A DNA stretch of 64,000 nucleotides. It comes from Candidatus Hodarchaeota archaeon. GTDB lineage: Archaea; Asgardarchaeota; Lokiarchaeia; Sigyniarchaeales; SOKP01. The notes below the pieces were generated by a model. That model saw nothing but the letters and a program-made list of their open reading frames with translations, had not been told where the DNA came from and did no database searches. Shown in pieces: positions 3,279 through 24,465 of the stretch; the stretch's first letter is position 1; each line of letters starts with the position of its first letter. The position numbers were made by a program, and so were the translations under genes. The stretch lies in contig JBHLKM010000002.1 in assembly GCA_048886685.1 (NCBI GenBank), positions 295,532-359,531 of the forward strand, written 5' to 3'.

Positions 3279-4160
3279 ATAGAGAAAAAAAAAATTACTA
3301 TATTATTAATTGAAGATAATTCAGCTGATGTACGTCTAATTAAAGAATTTTTAAAAAAATCAATAGATTTAAGTTATGAAATAGAATCATATTCTCGACT
3401 TTCCGAAAGTCTAAATAATATTAAAACCAGAAATTATGATATAATCCTATTAGATTTGGCTCTCCCTGATAGCGACAGAGAATCTACTCTAGAGAAAGTT
3501 TTAAACGCCACGGCAGAAATTCCTATTGTCATTTTAACTGGATTAGATGATAAGGAATTTGCTTTAGAATCTCTTAAAAAAGGAGCACAAGACTATCTAA
3601 TAAAAAATGAGCTCAATGAGACCAATCTAAGTCGAGCAATCCTTTATAGCATTGAGAGACACAAAATTGAAGGTGAAAGAGTAAAAAACCGAGTTCAAAA
3701 AATACAATTTGACGAAAAAGATAAAGAAATACTTAATATATTGCAAGAAAATTATAGAATCTCTTACAAAGAATTAAGTAAAAAAGTGAATCTAGCGGCT
3801 AGTACAATCCATAACCGAGTGCAAAATATGTTAAAAGAGGGAATTATTCGTAAATTTGATACACTTATAGATCCTTTCAAAGCAGGATATGACTCAATTG
3901 CAATTCTTGGTCTTTCTGTTGACCCATTGAAATTAGAGGAGGCAGCTGAAAAATTAGCAAATTATGATGAAATTCAACTGGTAGCTACCTCAACAGGTGA
4001 CCATAATATGATCTTACGCGTTCTAGCACTAAATGAGAAAGATCTTTGGAGATTCATTAATGAAAAAATTAAAGTAATTGACGGTATTCAACCAACTATG
4101 GATGTATCAAGTTTTATTGATATTTTTAAAATGACTCATAAAATAAATTTTAAAATTTGA
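3279..4160 (+). CDS. Response regulator with receiver domain fused to an Lrp/AsnC transcription factor
   Basis: The frame of ORF 3456..4160 stays open upstream to a stop at 3270 and gives ITILLIEDNSADVRLI...DIILLDLALPD (complete receiver). C-terminal half is AsnC HTH plus effector domain. Start is ATA 3279 after GGTGA, or ATG 3266 with a frameshift in the poly-A run. Confidence 0.88.
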   Translation: MEKKKITILLIEDNSADVRLIKEFLKKSIDLSYEIESYSRLSESLNNIKTRNYDIILLDLALPDSDRESTLEKVLNATAEIPIVILTGLDDKEFALESLKKGAQDYLIKNELNETNLSRAILYSIERHKIEGERVKNRVQKIQFDEKDKEILNILQENYRISYKELSKKVNLAASTIHNRVQNMLKEGIIRKFDTLIDPFKAGYDSIAILGLSVDPLKLEEAAEKLANYDEIQLVATSTGDHNMILRVLALNEKDLWRFINEKIKVIDGIQPTMDVSSFIDIFKMTHKINFKI

Positions 4161-16255: not shown

Positions 16256-17506
16256 ATGTCTTCTTACATTAATAATGAAATTAAGTGTAGCATTTGTAAA
16301 TATCAAAACTTAGGTGAAAATATTAAAAATGTAATTTCAATGGCAAATTATTGTTATGCTTGCAATAGATGTGTTAATGTGTGTCCACTTTCGCATTTAG
16401 ATGTATTTTTTCCGCGAACATTAGTAGGAGATTTAGTCCTCTCTTCATTCGGAGAAGTTTTAAATAATCATAATATCTGGGATTGTCTTACATGTGGTCA
16501 ATGTACAATATATTGTCCAATGAGTCAAGAGAATGTAGGAGTAAGAATACCCGAATTAATTTTGGAGTTGAGAAAGGCATCAAGAAATAATAAAATTCAA
16601 ATTAATAGAATACTTGAGAGCCAAACTCATAATGAAATCTTCCCGATAATTTCGAAAATGATGGCAAATAATCCAATAAATCCAAACAAATTAGAGTTTT
16701 TAAAGGAAAAAGGCCTAAAAACAACAGATTCAGGTGATATTGCGTATTTTGTTGGCTGCTTGCCTTTAATGGAAGAAATATTTTATAGCTTTAAAATTAA
16801 TTATAACAACATACCTATAACAATAATAAGTCTACTTAATGAAGCCAATATAGTACCAGTAGTTTTAAATGAAAAATGTTGCGGGCATGATATTTTATGG
16901 GGTGAGGGCGATATTGAAACTTTTAAAAAATTGGCCGAATATAATACTCAGCTTTACAAAGATGCTGAAGTAAAAACTGTTATAGTTGGATGTGCTGAAG
17001 GATATAGAACTTGGAAATATGATTATCCAAAAATAATAGATGGATTTGATTTCAAAGTTTTTCATTTTTCTGAATTTTTTCTAAAAGAGAAAATTCTTGA
17101 CCATTTAAAATTCCCTCGAAATCTCGAGACTAAGGTAACTTATCATGATTCTTGTCGAATGGGCCGTTTAGGCGGAAAATTATATGAAGCCCCAAGAGAA
17201 TTAATTAGACAAATTCCTGGAGTCGAATTAATTGAAATGGATAATATAAAAGATGATTCTAATTGTTGTGGCATCGCAACATTTCTAAATTGTAATGAAT
17301 ATACACGCGTTTTAAGGAAAAATCGTATCAATGAAGCAATTGATACCAGAGCAGAATATTTAATTGTCTCTTGTCCAAAATGTTTAACACATTTTAATTG
17401 TTATCTTAACGACCCTTCCTCAAATGAAGAGAAAAAAGGGTTAAGAAATAAAATAAAGGTGATCGACTTAGCAAGTTTGATTGGTAAATTGCTTCTGCTT
17501 GTTTAA
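16256..17506 (+). CDS. HdrD/GlpC-like Fe-S oxidoreductase (2x[4Fe-4S] + two CCG domains)
   Basis: CYACNRCVNVCP, CLTCGQCTIYCP, FVGC, EKCCG, GCAEG, YHDSC, CCG, SCPKC. Confidence 0.9.
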   Translation: MSSYINNEIKCSICKYQNLGENIKNVISMANYCYACNRCVNVCPLSHLDVFFPRTLVGDLVLSSFGEVLNNHNIWDCLTCGQCTIYCPMSQENVGVRIPELILELRKASRNNKIQINRILESQTHNEIFPIISKMMANNPINPNKLEFLKEKGLKTTDSGDIAYFVGCLPLMEEIFYSFKINYNNIPITIISLLNEANIVPVVLNEKCCGHDILWGEGDIETFKKLAEYNTQLYKDAEVKTVIVGCAEGYRTWKYDYPKIIDGFDFKVFHFSEFFLKEKILDHLKFPRNLETKVTYHDSCRMGRLGGKLYEAPRELIRQIPGVELIEMDNIKDDSNCCGIATFLNCNEYTRVLRKNRINEAIDTRAEYLIVSCPKCLTHFNCYLNDPSSNEEKKGLRNKIKVIDLASLIGKLLLLV

Positions 17507-17562: not shown

Positions 17563-20500
17563 ATGTTAAAATTACAGAGTAGTGTTTTAGTTATAGGGGG
17601 TGGAATTGCTGGTATACAGACATCATTAGATCTCACTAGGTTAGGATTCAAAGTTTATCTAGTTGAAATTAAACCTACTATTGGTGGGACTATGGCTCAA
17701 TTAGATAAAATATTTCCTACGCTTGATTGCAGTTTGTGTATTTTAGCTCCCAAAATGGTTGATGTATATAGAAATCCAAATATCGAGTTATTTTCTTATT
17801 CTTACATCAAAAAAATTAGAGGATCTGCTGGAAATTACACAGTAACAGTTATAAAGAAGCCAAGGTACATAAAAGAAGAGATTTGTAAAGGATGTGGAGA
17901 TTGTGTGAATGTTTGTCCAATTAAAGGAATTCCTAGCGAATTTGATACCCATTTAAAAACTCGAGAAGGTATATATATTCCTTTTCCATCATCTGTACCT
18001 CCAGTATATCTTATTGATGACAGAAATTGTTTATTTTTAAATTATCAAATATGTGGAATTTGTGCTAAAGTTTGTAAAGCTAATGCTATAGATTTTTTAC
18101 AAAAATCAGAAGAAATAACTTTGAATGTAGGAGCTATTGTTATTGCCACAGGATATAGCCAAGAAATGCCAGAAAATTATAATACTTTTGCTGGTTATTC
18201 TCCCAATGTTTTGTCTAGTATGCAATTTGAACGTATATTATCCGCAAACGGACCTACTGGTGGTCAAATCATAAAATTAGATGATAGAAAACCTCCTCAT
18301 TCAATTGCTTTTATACAATGTGTAGGTTCTCGGGATGTTCATCATCCTGCATGTAAAAAATATTGCTCTGCAATATGTTGTATGAATTCAGCTAAAGAAG
18401 CAATTGTGGTTAAGGAACATGATCTAAATATTGAATGCTATATTATTAATACAGAAATAAGAGCAAAAGGTAAGAATTTTTATGAATTTATTGAAAGATG
18501 TAAGAGTGAATATAATGTTAAATATATTAATGGTCGTGTTTCATATATCAAAGAGGATTTAGATAATGGGAAATTAAAATTATACTATGAAGATATTGAC
18601 AAAGGAACAGTTGGAACTTTTAAAGTGGATATGGCAATATTAGCTAGTGCTTTATCCCCAACTCCTTCTTACTATAAACTTTTAAGACAATTTAACGTAG
18701 GTTGTAATGATTTAGGATATATTCGTGAAAAAGATATAATCTTACTTGAAAAAAAGAATGTATTTGTAACTGGTTATTCTAGAAAACCAAATGATATTCA
18801 AATGGCAGTTGCTGAAGGTTCTGCATGTGCTGCTAAAATTAGTGAAAAATTATGTTCTGTTAGATTTCAAAATATAAAAAAAATAAGTTATCCTTCAGAA
18901 ATACCACTAACACCCGAGGATGACCCACGTGTAGGTATTTTTATTTGTCGATGTGGTACTAATATTGGGGGAATTGTTAATGTTCCTGAAGTAGTAAATT
19001 ATGTTTCTAAATTGCCTTATGTTGTTCATGTTGAAGAAAATATGTATTCATGTAGCTCTGATTCCCAAGAACGAATTAAAGAATTAATTATAAAATATAA
19101 TCTTAATAAATTTATAGTTGCTTCATGTACTCCTCGAACTCATGAACAACTTTTTAAGAATACTTTAAGAGAGGCTGGATTAAATCCATTTTTATTTGAA
19201 TTAGTCAATATAAGAAATCAAGATTCTTGGGTTCATCAAAATGAACCTGAAAAGGCAACCAAAAAAGCATGTGATTTAATTAGGATGTATTTAGGAAAGG
19301 TAATTAATTCAAAACCATTAGAAACTATTAATGTTAAAGTTGAAAAATCATCTCTAATAATCGGTGGTGGAATAACAGGAATAACTGCTGCACATAATTT
19401 AGCAAACCAAGGATTTGAAGTTTATCTCGTAGAAAAGGATTCTTTACTTGGGGGTGTTGCACTCGAATTTATAGATTTATATTATATACCTATTACGAAA
19501 AATGAAATTTTACAAAAAATTAATGATTTGAGAAATAATTCTGATGTTCATATTATATTAAACTCAGATATAGTTGATATTCAAGGTTATGTTGGTAATT
19601 ATCAGATTAAAGTTAAGAATATTCAAGATAATTCAGAAGATAAAACATTTAAAGTGGGGACAATAATAGTAGCCACGGGAACCAGGCAAATAAGGACAAA
19701 TAGATGGTTAGATTTATCAGAAAGATATCCCAAACGTGTATTAACCCAAAAAGAATTAACTGCGATTAAAGATGCAGATATTCCTAGATTTAAAGATGCT
19801 ACAATAATACTATGTGTAGATCAAAGAAGAAACGAATTTAATGAAGGAGATAATATAAAAACCTATTGTTCAAATATTTGTTGTGGCGTAGCATTAAAGA
19901 ATATCGAAAAATTATTAAATAACAACCCTAATGCTCATATTCATGTTTTATATAGAGAATTTCAATTTTCAGATTTAAATGCTGAACACTTGTGGCGAAG
20001 CCTTCGACAAAAGGTTACATATGAAAAATATCGTTCAATCGATAATATCAAAATCATTGAGGAAAACGGTAGATTTCATATAAAATACAAAAACATTGGC
20101 GCTAGAACAGATATAGAATATAATACAGATTTAATAATATTAGCAACCCCAAAAGTCCCTGCTGATGGAACTGAACAATTAGCAAAATTGTTAAAAGTTC
20201 CAACAAATAAAGATGGCTTTTTTTTAGAAGCTGATGCAAAACTTAGGCCAATTGACTTTGCAACGGAAGGAATTTTCTTATGTGGGGGAGCTCATTGGCC
20301 AAAATGGATTGGTGAAAGCATTACTCAAGCATATGGTGCAGCTGGCAGAGCAACGATATTAATGGTTAAAGGAGAAATAGAAGCTGAATGTATAACAGCC
20401 GGAATCAATGAGGAAAAGTGCATTGGATGCGGTAGATGTGCCGAAATTTGCATTTATAATGCCATCGAATTGTATGACACTATTAAACAAATGGGTTTAT

Positions 20501-20673
20501 ACACTACTAATATAAAGAAAGCACGAGTAATTAAAGCTGTTTGTAAAGGTTGTGGAGCATGTGTTGTAGAATGTCCAGTTAATGCTATTGATCAAAATCA
20601 CTTTAGCAAGATTCAAATTAATAATATGATTGATTTATTACCAGGAATAGAATTACCGCATTATATTATTTAA
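17563..20673 (+). CDS. hdrA: Large HdrA-family flavo-Fe-S protein with two FAD modules (all-Cys paralogue)
   Basis: GGGIAG, QLDKIFPTLDCSLC, QCVGSR...YCSAICC, FICRCGTNI, ASCTPRTHE, second GGGITG, terminal 2x[4Fe-4S]. Confidence 0.92.
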   Translation: MLKLQSSVLVIGGGIAGIQTSLDLTRLGFKVYLVEIKPTIGGTMAQLDKIFPTLDCSLCILAPKMVDVYRNPNIELFSYSYIKKIRGSAGNYTVTVIKKPRYIKEEICKGCGDCVNVCPIKGIPSEFDTHLKTREGIYIPFPSSVPPVYLIDDRNCLFLNYQICGICAKVCKANAIDFLQKSEEITLNVGAIVIATGYSQEMPENYNTFAGYSPNVLSSMQFERILSANGPTGGQIIKLDDRKPPHSIAFIQCVGSRDVHHPACKKYCSAICCMNSAKEAIVVKEHDLNIECYIINTEIRAKGKNFYEFIERCKSEYNVKYINGRVSYIKEDLDNGKLKLYYEDIDKGTVGTFKVDMAILASALSPTPSYYKLLRQFNVGCNDLGYIREKDIILLEKKNVFVTGYSRKPNDIQMAVAEGSACAAKISEKLCSVRFQNIKKISYPSEIPLTPEDDPRVGIFICRCGTNIGGIVNVPEVVNYVSKLPYVVHVEENMYSCSSDSQERIKELIIKYNLNKFIVASCTPRTHEQLFKNTLREAGLNPFLFELVNIRNQDSWVHQNEPEKATKKACDLIRMYLGKVINSKPLETINVKVEKSSLIIGGGITGITAAHNLANQGFEVYLVEKDSLLGGVALEFIDLYYIPITKNEILQKINDLRNNSDVHIILNSDIVDIQGYVGNYQIKVKNIQDNSEDKTFKVGTIIVATGTRQIRTNRWLDLSERYPKRVLTQKELTAIKDADIPRFKDATIILCVDQRRNEFNEGDNIKTYCSNICCGVALKNIEKLLNNNPNAHIHVLYREFQFSDLNAEHLWRSLRQKVTYEKYRSIDNIKIIEENGRFHIKYKNIGARTDIEYNTDLIILATPKVPADGTEQLAKLLKVPTNKDGFFLEADAKLRPIDFATEGIFLCGGAHWPKWIGESITQAYGAAGRATILMVKGEIEAECITAGINEEKCIGCGRCAEICIYNAIELYDTIKQMGLYTTNIKKARVIKAVCKGCGACVVECPVNAIDQNHFSKIQINNMIDLLPGIELPHYII

Positions 20674-22357: not shown

Positions 22358-22428
22358 TCTGAAAACCCACACTATGGGTTAGTTCCCCCTCAACTATAGT
22401 TTTTTTGAAAGGATCATCCTTTTTCAGA
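22358..22428 (-). promoter_or_regulatory. SECIS-like element (eukaryote-type AUGA...AA...GA hairpin) overlapping the hdrA stop codon
   Basis: Minus strand: UCUGAAAA AGG AUGA UCCUUUC AAAAA AAC UAUA GUU GAGGGG GA ACU AACCCA UAGUG UGGG UUUUCAGA. AUGA/GA core, upper stem with one bulge, unpaired As, apical mini-helix, closing 8-bp helix. Confidence 0.7.
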
Positions 22429-24465
22429 TAATATTTTATGAGGAGCTAGTGCTTCAATCTTTTTCCAAATAAGTTCAATAGATTCGATATACTGTTCCTT
22501 ATATTCAAGTTCAGTACTACAGATTCCTTTCATTTCTTCAATAATTTGTTTGTCTCTATAATATTTGAGATCAATTGCACGAGCTGGACATGAAGATACA
22601 CAAACCCCGCAACCTTTACACTTTAAATCATCTACTTCCGCAATATCTTCTCCATTGACTGTGATTGCTTTATTAACACAGAGCTTCTCACATCTATGAC
22701 AACCCATGCACAGATTTTCATCTATTTCAGCAATAATTAATTCTTGAATTATTGAATCTTTAGAAATTAATGTTGAAACCTTACTTGCAGCGGCTAACGC
22801 TGTTGATACTGAATAAGGGATATTTTTGGGTCCGGCGGCACATCCACATATATAAATGCCCATATTATTTGTCTCTTGAGGTTTTAAGCATCCATGAACT
22901 TCTGTCAAAAATCCGTTCATATCTTTACTTAAACCCAAAATCTCAATTATTTCAGCTGTGCCTTTAGAAGGGACCATGCCTGTTGATAAAACAACTAAAT
23001 CGGTATTCATTATAATGAAATCATTTGTTAAAGTTGAAGCAGCAGTAATCCTAATCTTTTTTGTTGCAGGATCTTCTCGTATATCTCCCACTTTTCCCCG
23101 AATCATCATTATGCCTGCTTCTCTCGCTTTTCTATAATATTCCTCATTTCCTTTATCCCATGCCCGTATATCTATATAAAAAATAGTAATCTCCATATTA
23201 GGATATTCTTGTTTTAACAATTGAGCATTTTTAAGAGCAACACTGCAGCATACTACTGAACAATATGGATTACCTTTTAAAGTTCTTGAACCAACACATT
23301 GAATCATAGCTACTGTTTTAGGGATCTTTCCATCAGAAATCCTATATATATGACCTCCTGTAGGTCCAACTGGACTTAACATTCGTTCTAACTCTATTTG
23401 TGTAATTACATTGGGATAAATCCCATATTTATATTCATTATTTTTCATAATTGGGTATTCATCCCATCCTGTGGCAATAATTACTGCTCCAACTTTTAAT
23501 GTAATATCTTTTGGGGTTTGTTCAAATTCAATAGCTTCAGCGGGGCAAATTCTTTGACAATTTTTACATTCTATTCATACACTCCTATCAATTAGAGCTA
23601 CTTTTGGTACTGATTGGGGAAAAGGTATGTAAATTGCTTTTCGTTCGCCAATACCTCTGTTAAATTCGTTAGGTACTTCTATTGGTCATTTCGTTGTACA
23701 TAATTCACAACCAGTACACTTGTTTTCATTAATATATCGAGGTTTTTTATGTATTTTAACATTATAATTTCCAGGTATGCCGCTGAATTTACTAATTTCG
23801 CTATAGGTAAATAATGTTATATTTGGATGTTTTGAGACACTTACCATAATAGGTGCTAGAACTCATATCGCACAATCATCAGTGGGATAAATTCGATCTA
23901 ATTTTGCCATTTTTCCACCAATAGTGGCTTCTTTTTCGACTAAATACACATTTATTCCTTGATTTGCTAAATCTAATGCAGCATTCATCCCTGCAATACC
24001 AGCGCCGATAATTAATACAGATTTTTCTACTGATACTCTTTTATTAGGTATGATTTCTAATTCTCTAGCACGATTTATCCCTGCTTGCACTAACCTTATA
24101 GCTTTTTCAGTAATTCTTTTCTTATTTCCCGAGTGAGCAAATGAGCATTGTTCGCGAAGATTAACCATTTGGAAATAATATGGGTTTAAACCCGCTTCAG
24201 CTAGCACTGCTCGATAAGTAGATTCATGAATTTTAGGTGTACAAGCTGCCACAACAACACGATTTAAGTCTAAATCTAAAATATCGTTTTTGATAATATT
24301 TTGTCCTGGATTGCTGCAAGTAAAATTGTTCACTCTAGCAACAATAATACCAGGGAGTGCCTCAACATAATCTCTAATAAGCTCGCAATCGATACTGTTA
24401 CTAATATTAACTCCTCATCTACAGATATAGAATCCAATTCTAACATTGGTCTGTTTTTCAGACAT
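22414..24465 (-). CDS. hdrA: Selenocysteine-containing HdrA, 683 aa, four in-frame UGA (codons 17, 201, 260, 297)
   Basis: Joins ORFs 23863..24333 and 22414..23448 in one frame from ATG 24465. UGA at 24415-17 (YICR-U-GVNI), 23863-65 (DDCAI-U-VLAP), 23686-88 ([12 protein letters not shown]) and 23575-77 ([12 protein letters not shown]). All align to Cys of the neighbouring HdrA; no other stops or frameshifts. Confidence 0.93.

Follow-up and report, generated by a model that had tools for sequence, protein, structure and literature searches.

A stand-alone lokiarchaeal HdrA gene with four in-frame UGA codons, predicted to encode selenocysteine, and a SECIS element at its own stop codon

HdrA proteins with several selenocysteine (Sec) residues were already published for Lokiarchaeota in 2016. 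Mariotti et al. (2016; PMC4989117) describe up to four Sec distributed over five positions, all of them outside the ferredoxin motifs except one, which lies in the last motif. According to the same authors, the HdrA gene always stands before VhuD and shares with it a SECIS element located 3' of VhuD, and the HdrA reading frames end in UAA or UAG. In the published model a single lokiSECIS serves up to six UGA codons over about 2 kb, and Lokiarchaeota have no known SBP2 (PMC4989117). A survey of Asgard genomes (2024; PMC11227280) noted an AUGA_AA variant of the SECIS core as well as several selD copies in Loki and Thor genomes, and on hdrA it states that ‘almost all’ of these genes use the frhD SECIS. 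Given this wording, cases of HdrA with a stand-alone SECIS may be tabulated in that survey; in the supplements searched, no motif or term gave a match. The canonical Sec position of HdrA has also been characterized structurally. Cys197 of the Methanothermococcus structure is reported to coordinate the partner protomer's N-terminal [4Fe-4S] cluster (PMC9012536), and Sec197 of Methanococcus maripaludis is seen paired with a Cys, the two residues being located between FAD and cluster A3 (PMC13518236).

The gene described here lies in a 64,000-nt window (the whole stretch of DNA that was analysed) on contig 2 of a 4.42-Mb assembly, a MAG of 47 contigs with 31% G+C and an estimated contamination of 8%. 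A preliminary description of this DNA had joined two annotated fragments and two gaps into one frame with UGA as its only internal stop, and had attributed the fragmentation to standard gene callers. Both points held. Translation of the minus strand from 24465 to 22414 gives 683 codons, the only internal stops are TGA at codons 17, 201, 260 and 297, and the terminator is TGA too; ORF calling with translation table 11 splits this frame into pieces of 344, 53 and 156 aa. A plus-strand reading of the same coordinates was without an open frame and was rejected. The gene and its internal UGA codons are the following:

22414..24465, minus strand: complete HdrA-like coding sequence; its 683 codons, four of them UGA, are followed by a UGA stop (translation, Pfam and structure-chain match).
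24415..24417, minus strand: UGA codon 17, in the C-R-U motif of the N-terminal domain; TGA in each of the 79 relatives with sequence at this site, but Cys in the genome's all-Cys paralogues.
23863..23865, minus strand: UGA codon 201, in DDCAIU, the canonical HdrA Sec position; TGA in 80/80 relatives, X in 9sfi_A and Cys197 in 5odc_A.
23686..23688, minus strand: UGA codon 260, in the inserted ferredoxin domain, where it takes the fourth ligand position of the motif CxxCxxCxxxU-P; TGT or TGC in 80/80 relatives.
23575..23577, minus strand: UGA codon 297, in the inserted ferredoxin domain, where it takes the first ligand position of the motif UxxCxxCxxxCP; TGT or TGC in 80/80 relatives.

The read-through protein contains Pyr_redox_2, NAD_binding_8 and several Fer4 (4Fe-4S ferredoxin) domains in Pfam. 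Compared with solved-structure chains, it matches 9sfi_A (E 1.2e-216) and 5odc_A (E 2.9e-204), in both cases over residues 8-650; because solved HdrA chains match over this span at E 1e-216, the frame is not a chance occurrence. The similarity to structurally characterised HdrA is full-length, and the order of domains is the same. Its translation also shows an FAD Rossmann motif, GAGIAG, at residues 155-160, and a CxGSR...CSxxCC cluster motif at residues 390-407. All four CxxCxxCxxxCP motifs of the inserted and C-terminal 2x[4Fe-4S] domains were identified, with U260 closing the first and U297 opening the second, in agreement with the earlier placement of these two codons in the inserted ferredoxin. 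We regard this multi-UGA frame as a real selenoprotein gene that had been correctly spotted behind a fragmented annotation, and in which Sec insertion is predicted from the sequence.

The four sites were compared across 80 loci that encode relatives in Promethearchaeota (Lokiarchaeota) genomes, about 35 of which are orthologues at 75-87% identity. Each of the sites aligns with Cys or Sec in homologues, and the adjacent HdrA (17563..20673), a 1036-aa fusion, was seen in the alignment to have Cys at all four, as had been claimed. Codon 201 had been equated with the Sec position of methanococcal HdrA, and rightly so, since the X of 9sfi_A aligned with it is the residue named Sec197 in PMC13518236. 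The preliminary description had considered the other three Sec unusual. This is true of 260 and 297, which are Cys in 80/80 relatives, but not of 17, which is TGA in all 79-80 of them; similarly, the alternation between UGA and Cys that it proposed to score was found at 260 and 297, whereas codons 17 and 201 are invariably TGA. In a search of 23 congeneric species, orthologues were found to carry two TGAs, except for two with three; none has four. By this comparison, UGA260 and UGA297 are predicted Cys-to-Sec changes that are new to the studied genome and absent elsewhere among the 80 relatives. A selenium-rich subunit is in itself no novelty, contrary to what had been suggested: up to four Sec were on record (PMC4989117), the HdrA-VhuD paralogue of the studied genome contains four TGAs, and in the congeneric counterparts of this paralogue four are common and one has five.

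A metagenome scan for Sec at 260 with a narrow pattern returned no match, the pattern being too narrow, and a broader one (U-P-I-x-V-P-N-E-F) returned five matches, all of them out-of-frame chance hits with none in HdrA. Sporadic extra TGAs do occur at Fe-S Cys codons in other lineages, namely at 256, 303 and 407 (407 in two genomes), and the Fe-S Cys positions that carry TGA in different lineages are thus 256, 260, 297, 303 and 407. Cys codons constitute about 26% of the codons in the HdrA gene that are one step from TGA. The chance that both extra codons, 260 and 297, would land on Cys codons is about 0.065, and across lineages five of the six extra TGAs are located at Cys codons (p ~0.006, binomial by hand). 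This concentration fits a long-range SECIS under which a Cys codon that mutates to UGA comes to encode Sec and does not truncate the protein. A SECIS that serves the whole mRNA would put every Cys codon one mutation from Sec.

One orthologue, from L048 (CP070805.1), has an in-frame TGA at the non-Cys residue 112 (FVS*GDK, compared to FAHSGNK here). Either an error or a Sec site of a new kind could explain it.

A SECIS element was identified at the 3' end of the gene, with the following parts:

22358..22428, minus strand: SECIS element (strict pattern scan, covariation, RNAalifold and covariance model).
22417..22414, minus strand: AUGA core; the UGA inside it is the stop codon of the gene.
22413..22405 paired with 22393..22385, minus strand: helix II, a 9-bp stem.
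22404..22394, minus strand: apical loop AAAAACUAUAG, 11 nt, A-rich and starting AAAAA.
22384..22383, minus strand: 3' core AA, opposite AUGA.
22428..22422 paired with 22364..22358, minus strand: closing helix I (RNAalifold, covariation).
22379..22376 paired with 22368..22365, minus strand: side hairpin (RNAalifold, covariation).

The strict pattern scan found the succession of a lokiSECIS, i.e. AUGA, UCCUUUCAA, AAAAACUAUAG, UUGAGGGGG and AA, within 22417..22383; this pattern occurs at only about seven places genome-wide, one of which is 3' of a two-Sec VhuD. In an alignment of 28 sequences, including 27 orthologues, 96% of the cells in the helix are paired, whereas sliding the partner strand leaves 40-69%. 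Compensatory change is seen at four pairs, and none of 500 shuffles reached the observed score. RNAalifold recovered all three helices de novo, each with covariation, and the centroid fold of a 91-nt segment shows the hairpin. It was not formed in the minimum-energy fold of a 56-nt segment (z -0.68), and an Rfam search of the region gave no family, even at E up to 10. Orthologues terminate with TAA in the place of codon 679, immediately ahead of the AUGA. Codon 679 (22429-22431) is TTA here and not TAA; the frame therefore extends by four codons, through the 5' strand of the closing helix, to the UGA of the SECIS core.

The organization of this locus is also distinct within its own genome, which encodes about 20 HdrA paralogues. 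Five of these are Sec-bearing, and their Sec positions total six (17, 50, 75, 201, 260 and 297); one paralogue, at C2:239212-241140, has Sec at 17, 50, 75 and 201. Each of the remaining four Sec-HdrA genes has a two-Sec VhuD after it, with a SECIS found beyond VhuD in three cases, and the studied gene is the only one of the five to possess its own. It thus departs from the rule that HdrA shares the lokiSECIS located 3' of the VhuD that follows it: its strand has no VhuD, and the SECIS overlaps the stop codon of HdrA itself. A covariance model of the SECIS (R1), which was built on the orthologues and run against the studied genome, matches the SECIS 3' of three Sec-VhuD genes elsewhere. Since its best match (67.9 bits) lies 3' of the VhuD of the closest HdrA paralogue, comparison of these sequences suggests that the stand-alone gene was derived from an HdrA-VhuD-SECIS module by loss of VhuD.

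The gene is monocistronic, constitutes its own transcription unit without an hdrBC partner, and faces an FrhB-like gene in convergent orientation; the neighbouring operon encodes a protein with a CCG domain at 16256-17506. Synteny among orthologues includes an upstream FrhB-like gene, which is divergent in most and co-directional in a more distant subgroup, and a convergent downstream operon of FrhB-like and MvhD genes. The 1036-aa ‘HdrA’ at 17563-20673 on the plus strand is a fusion, and about eight similar genes are found on contigs C2 and C7. Its first part comprises the FAD domain, the inserted ferredoxin and the Cys197 equivalent and lacks the N-terminal domain. HdrA fusions of ANME show the same complementarity in the opposite order (PMC9012536).

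Two further ORFs with in-frame UGA codons were noticed outside the window. On contig C14 (C14:111682-112215; L118:137-616, minus strand), a 159-aa ORF with adjacent UGAs (HADUUADV) lies directly upstream of an R1 match (33 bits, E 0.008). This ORF belongs to no Pfam family and is a candidate for an undescribed selenoprotein with a vicinal Sec-Sec pair, as judged from its sequence. The second, 2.7 kb past the window end on contig C2 (C2:362237-362535; L119:153-386, minus strand), is a membrane-like ORF of 77 aa with the motif GGGUVC, located upstream of a SECIS-model match (33 bits) and with a weak Pfam match.

The search for Sec machinery that had been proposed for this genome yielded a tRNA-Sec, SepSecS and two selD genes, plus SelB/EFSec-like and PSTK-like genes:

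C1:221077-221165: tRNA-Sec, 63 bits (cut-off 47).
C1, directly adjoining tRNA-Sec: SepSecS, 483 bits.
4 kb from tRNA-Sec: SelB/EFSec-like gene, 237 bits, below the curated cut-off of models built on other lineages.
C13:56676-58803: two tandem selD genes with one in-frame TGA each, 191 and 171 bits.
C12: PSTK-like gene, 136 bits, below the curated cut-off of models built on other lineages.

Of the 2317 stop-to-stop ORFs in the genome that span at least 250 codons, 326 (14%) end with TGA, and because it terminates this many long ORFs, UGA is not globally reassigned. The earlier remarks that reassignment was improbable and that other genes end in UGA were both correct, the latter being confirmed for the genes that end at 4160 and 29430. 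At C1:21205-21298, ARAGORN called a tRNA with a four-base anticodon (tcca) that Rfam scores as an ordinary tRNA (52.6 bits); the four-base anticodon is probably not real, and an intron would explain the call.

The reading that we favor, with a probability of about 0.78, is that of a functional monocistronic gene for an HdrA-type flavin/iron-sulfur subunit that bifurcates electrons, the SECIS of which directs Sec insertion at all four UGAs. The frame, its homology, the machinery, the conserved SECIS, the support from reads and the absence of decay are direct observations, from which we infer that Sec is inserted. We propose that the eukaryote-like lokiSECIS, with an AUGA core that includes HdrA's own UGA stop, acts over 1.16-2.0 kb and enables the EFSec/tRNA-Sec system to read the four upstream UGAs as selenocysteine, while the terminal UGA might escape recoding by being too near the SECIS. 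Sec201 would then be the canonical Sec beside FAD and the N-terminal cluster, and Sec17, in the N-terminal domain, a second one common to the whole lineage. Sec260 and Sec297 would represent recent, species-specific Cys-to-Sec swaps that each required one third-base change.

Alternatively, only UGA17 and UGA201 might be read as Sec, with UGA260 and UGA297 being recent nonsense mutations in a gene that is newly truncated or dying and is covered for by a paralogue. Such an event would account for the lack of both codons in all 80 relatives and 23 congeneric species, about twenty HdrA paralogues are available to take over (one of them 73% identical to the studied HdrA), and a ferredoxin-type cluster with two Sec was not found in the literature searched. 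We nevertheless consider it unlikely. The SECIS of this mRNA must already serve UGAs that are located farther upstream, the 260 and 297 changes both affect Cys codons, and comparable extra TGAs recur at Fe-S Cys codons elsewhere. Furthermore, the 386 codons downstream are without a frameshift, another stop or an excess of substitutions. The protein distance ratio relative to orthologues shows no rise downstream of codon 297 (0.90, compared to 0.98 upstream), and only 1 of 164 downstream columns that are invariant otherwise is changed here, which is inside the orthologues' own range. This intact downstream sequence shows no sign of decay and argues against a degenerating gene, leaving room for a very recent nonsense event. 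The allele also appears to be fixed. Read support was assessed on per-run contigs from runs of one sediment study, among which the source sample may be included. Contigs of runs X1, X2, X3 and X4 cover codon 260, and those of X1, X2 and X3 codon 297, with no differences; in three runs, from three samples, contigs carry TGA260 and TGA297 unchanged, at a depth of 18-42 that equals that of the flanks. Since these contigs agree at flank-equal depth, an assembly error at the two codons is unlikely, and the TGA260/297 allele looks fixed in the three samples.

The same contigs bear on the idea that errors of sequencing or assembly in one genome produced the extra TGAs. As a MAG whose contamination is estimated at 8%, this genome lends the idea some plausibility a priori, but zero differences in three samples make it scarcely credible. 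A different decoding of UGA is very improbable as well, whether by genome-wide reassignment or by reading it here as Cys, e.g. through Cys-charged tRNA-Sec when selenium is scarce. All four UGA sites are Cys positions, as this would predict, and insertion of Cys at Sec codons is known from mammals. However, the share of long ORFs closed by TGA is at odds with reassignment, in-frame TGAs are confined to known selenoprotein families with a SECIS, and a complete Sec synthesis pathway is present in the genome.

Of the four predicted Sec residues, U201 aligns with Cys197 of 5odc_A, and U17 is located in the N-terminal cluster domain. [quoted passage not shown] In 2x[4Fe-4S] ferredoxins, the last Cys of one motif joins the first three of the other in one cluster. 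By this motif rule, U260 and U297 should bind the same [4Fe-4S] cluster together with C300 and C303, and the inserted domain is predicted to hold, on the low-potential exit branch, one cluster ligated by two Se and two S. It is from the analogy with ferredoxins that we infer this ligand assignment, along with any functional effect. We lean slightly towards the view that both extra UGAs are decoded and give rise to a natural two-selenolate [4Fe-4S] cluster in the low-potential branch of a bifurcating enzyme, within a family, the lokiarchaeal HdrA, in which Fe-S ligand sites would be repeatedly sampled by Cys-to-Sec exchange. If Sec is truly inserted, this protein would be a natural model for selenolate tuning of a low-potential cluster, and a SECIS that acts at a distance would offer Sec a route to spread within one protein. 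A practical consequence concerns annotation: Asgard HdrA relatives are split by gene callers, and Hdr content is thereby under-counted.

Among characterized proteins, the HdrA of Methanococcus and Methanocaldococcus (9SFI, 5ODC) is more than 50% alignable over 640 residues and has the same domain order, with Sec/Cys197 corresponding to U201. Methanococcal HdrA contains one Sec and relies on an archaeal-type SECIS, whereas the studied gene has four UGAs and a lokiSECIS; the former operates in a CoM-S-S-CoB reductase complex with HdrBC, whereas the studied organism is no methanogen. Selenoprotein P and other multi-Sec eukaryotic selenoproteins likewise combine several UGAs with a remote 3' kink-turn SECIS, although Selenoprotein P is an unrelated protein that uses two SECIS elements and SBP2. 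The closest resemblance is to the multi-Sec HdrA of Lokiarchaeota, which shares the family, the phylum, the number of up to four Sec and a canonical Sec near residue 200 that is always among them. The lokiSECIS of this group has the same AUGA core, 9-bp stem and 11-nt A-rich loop, and both the AUGA_AA core and UGA stops within AUGA are features of described Loki and Asgard SECIS elements (PMC4989117; PMC11227280). Relative to this background, the variation at codons 260 and 297 is modest and limited to one species. Three features go beyond the account of HdrA given in the 2016 paper. The published HdrA always borrows the SECIS of VhuD, whereas the studied gene and its approximately 35 orthologues form a VhuD-less lineage with its own SECIS at the stop, equipped with a closing helix and a side hairpin, that runs against this rule. 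The studied HdrA ends in UGA instead of UAA or UAG, in line with the minimum-distance idea of Mariotti et al. Finally, the predicted Sec260 and Sec297 reside in the first two ferredoxin motifs, in contrast to the sole ferredoxin-motif Sec of that account, which is in the last, and would add two Sec positions at classical iron-sulfur ligand sites to those known for lokiarchaeal HdrA.
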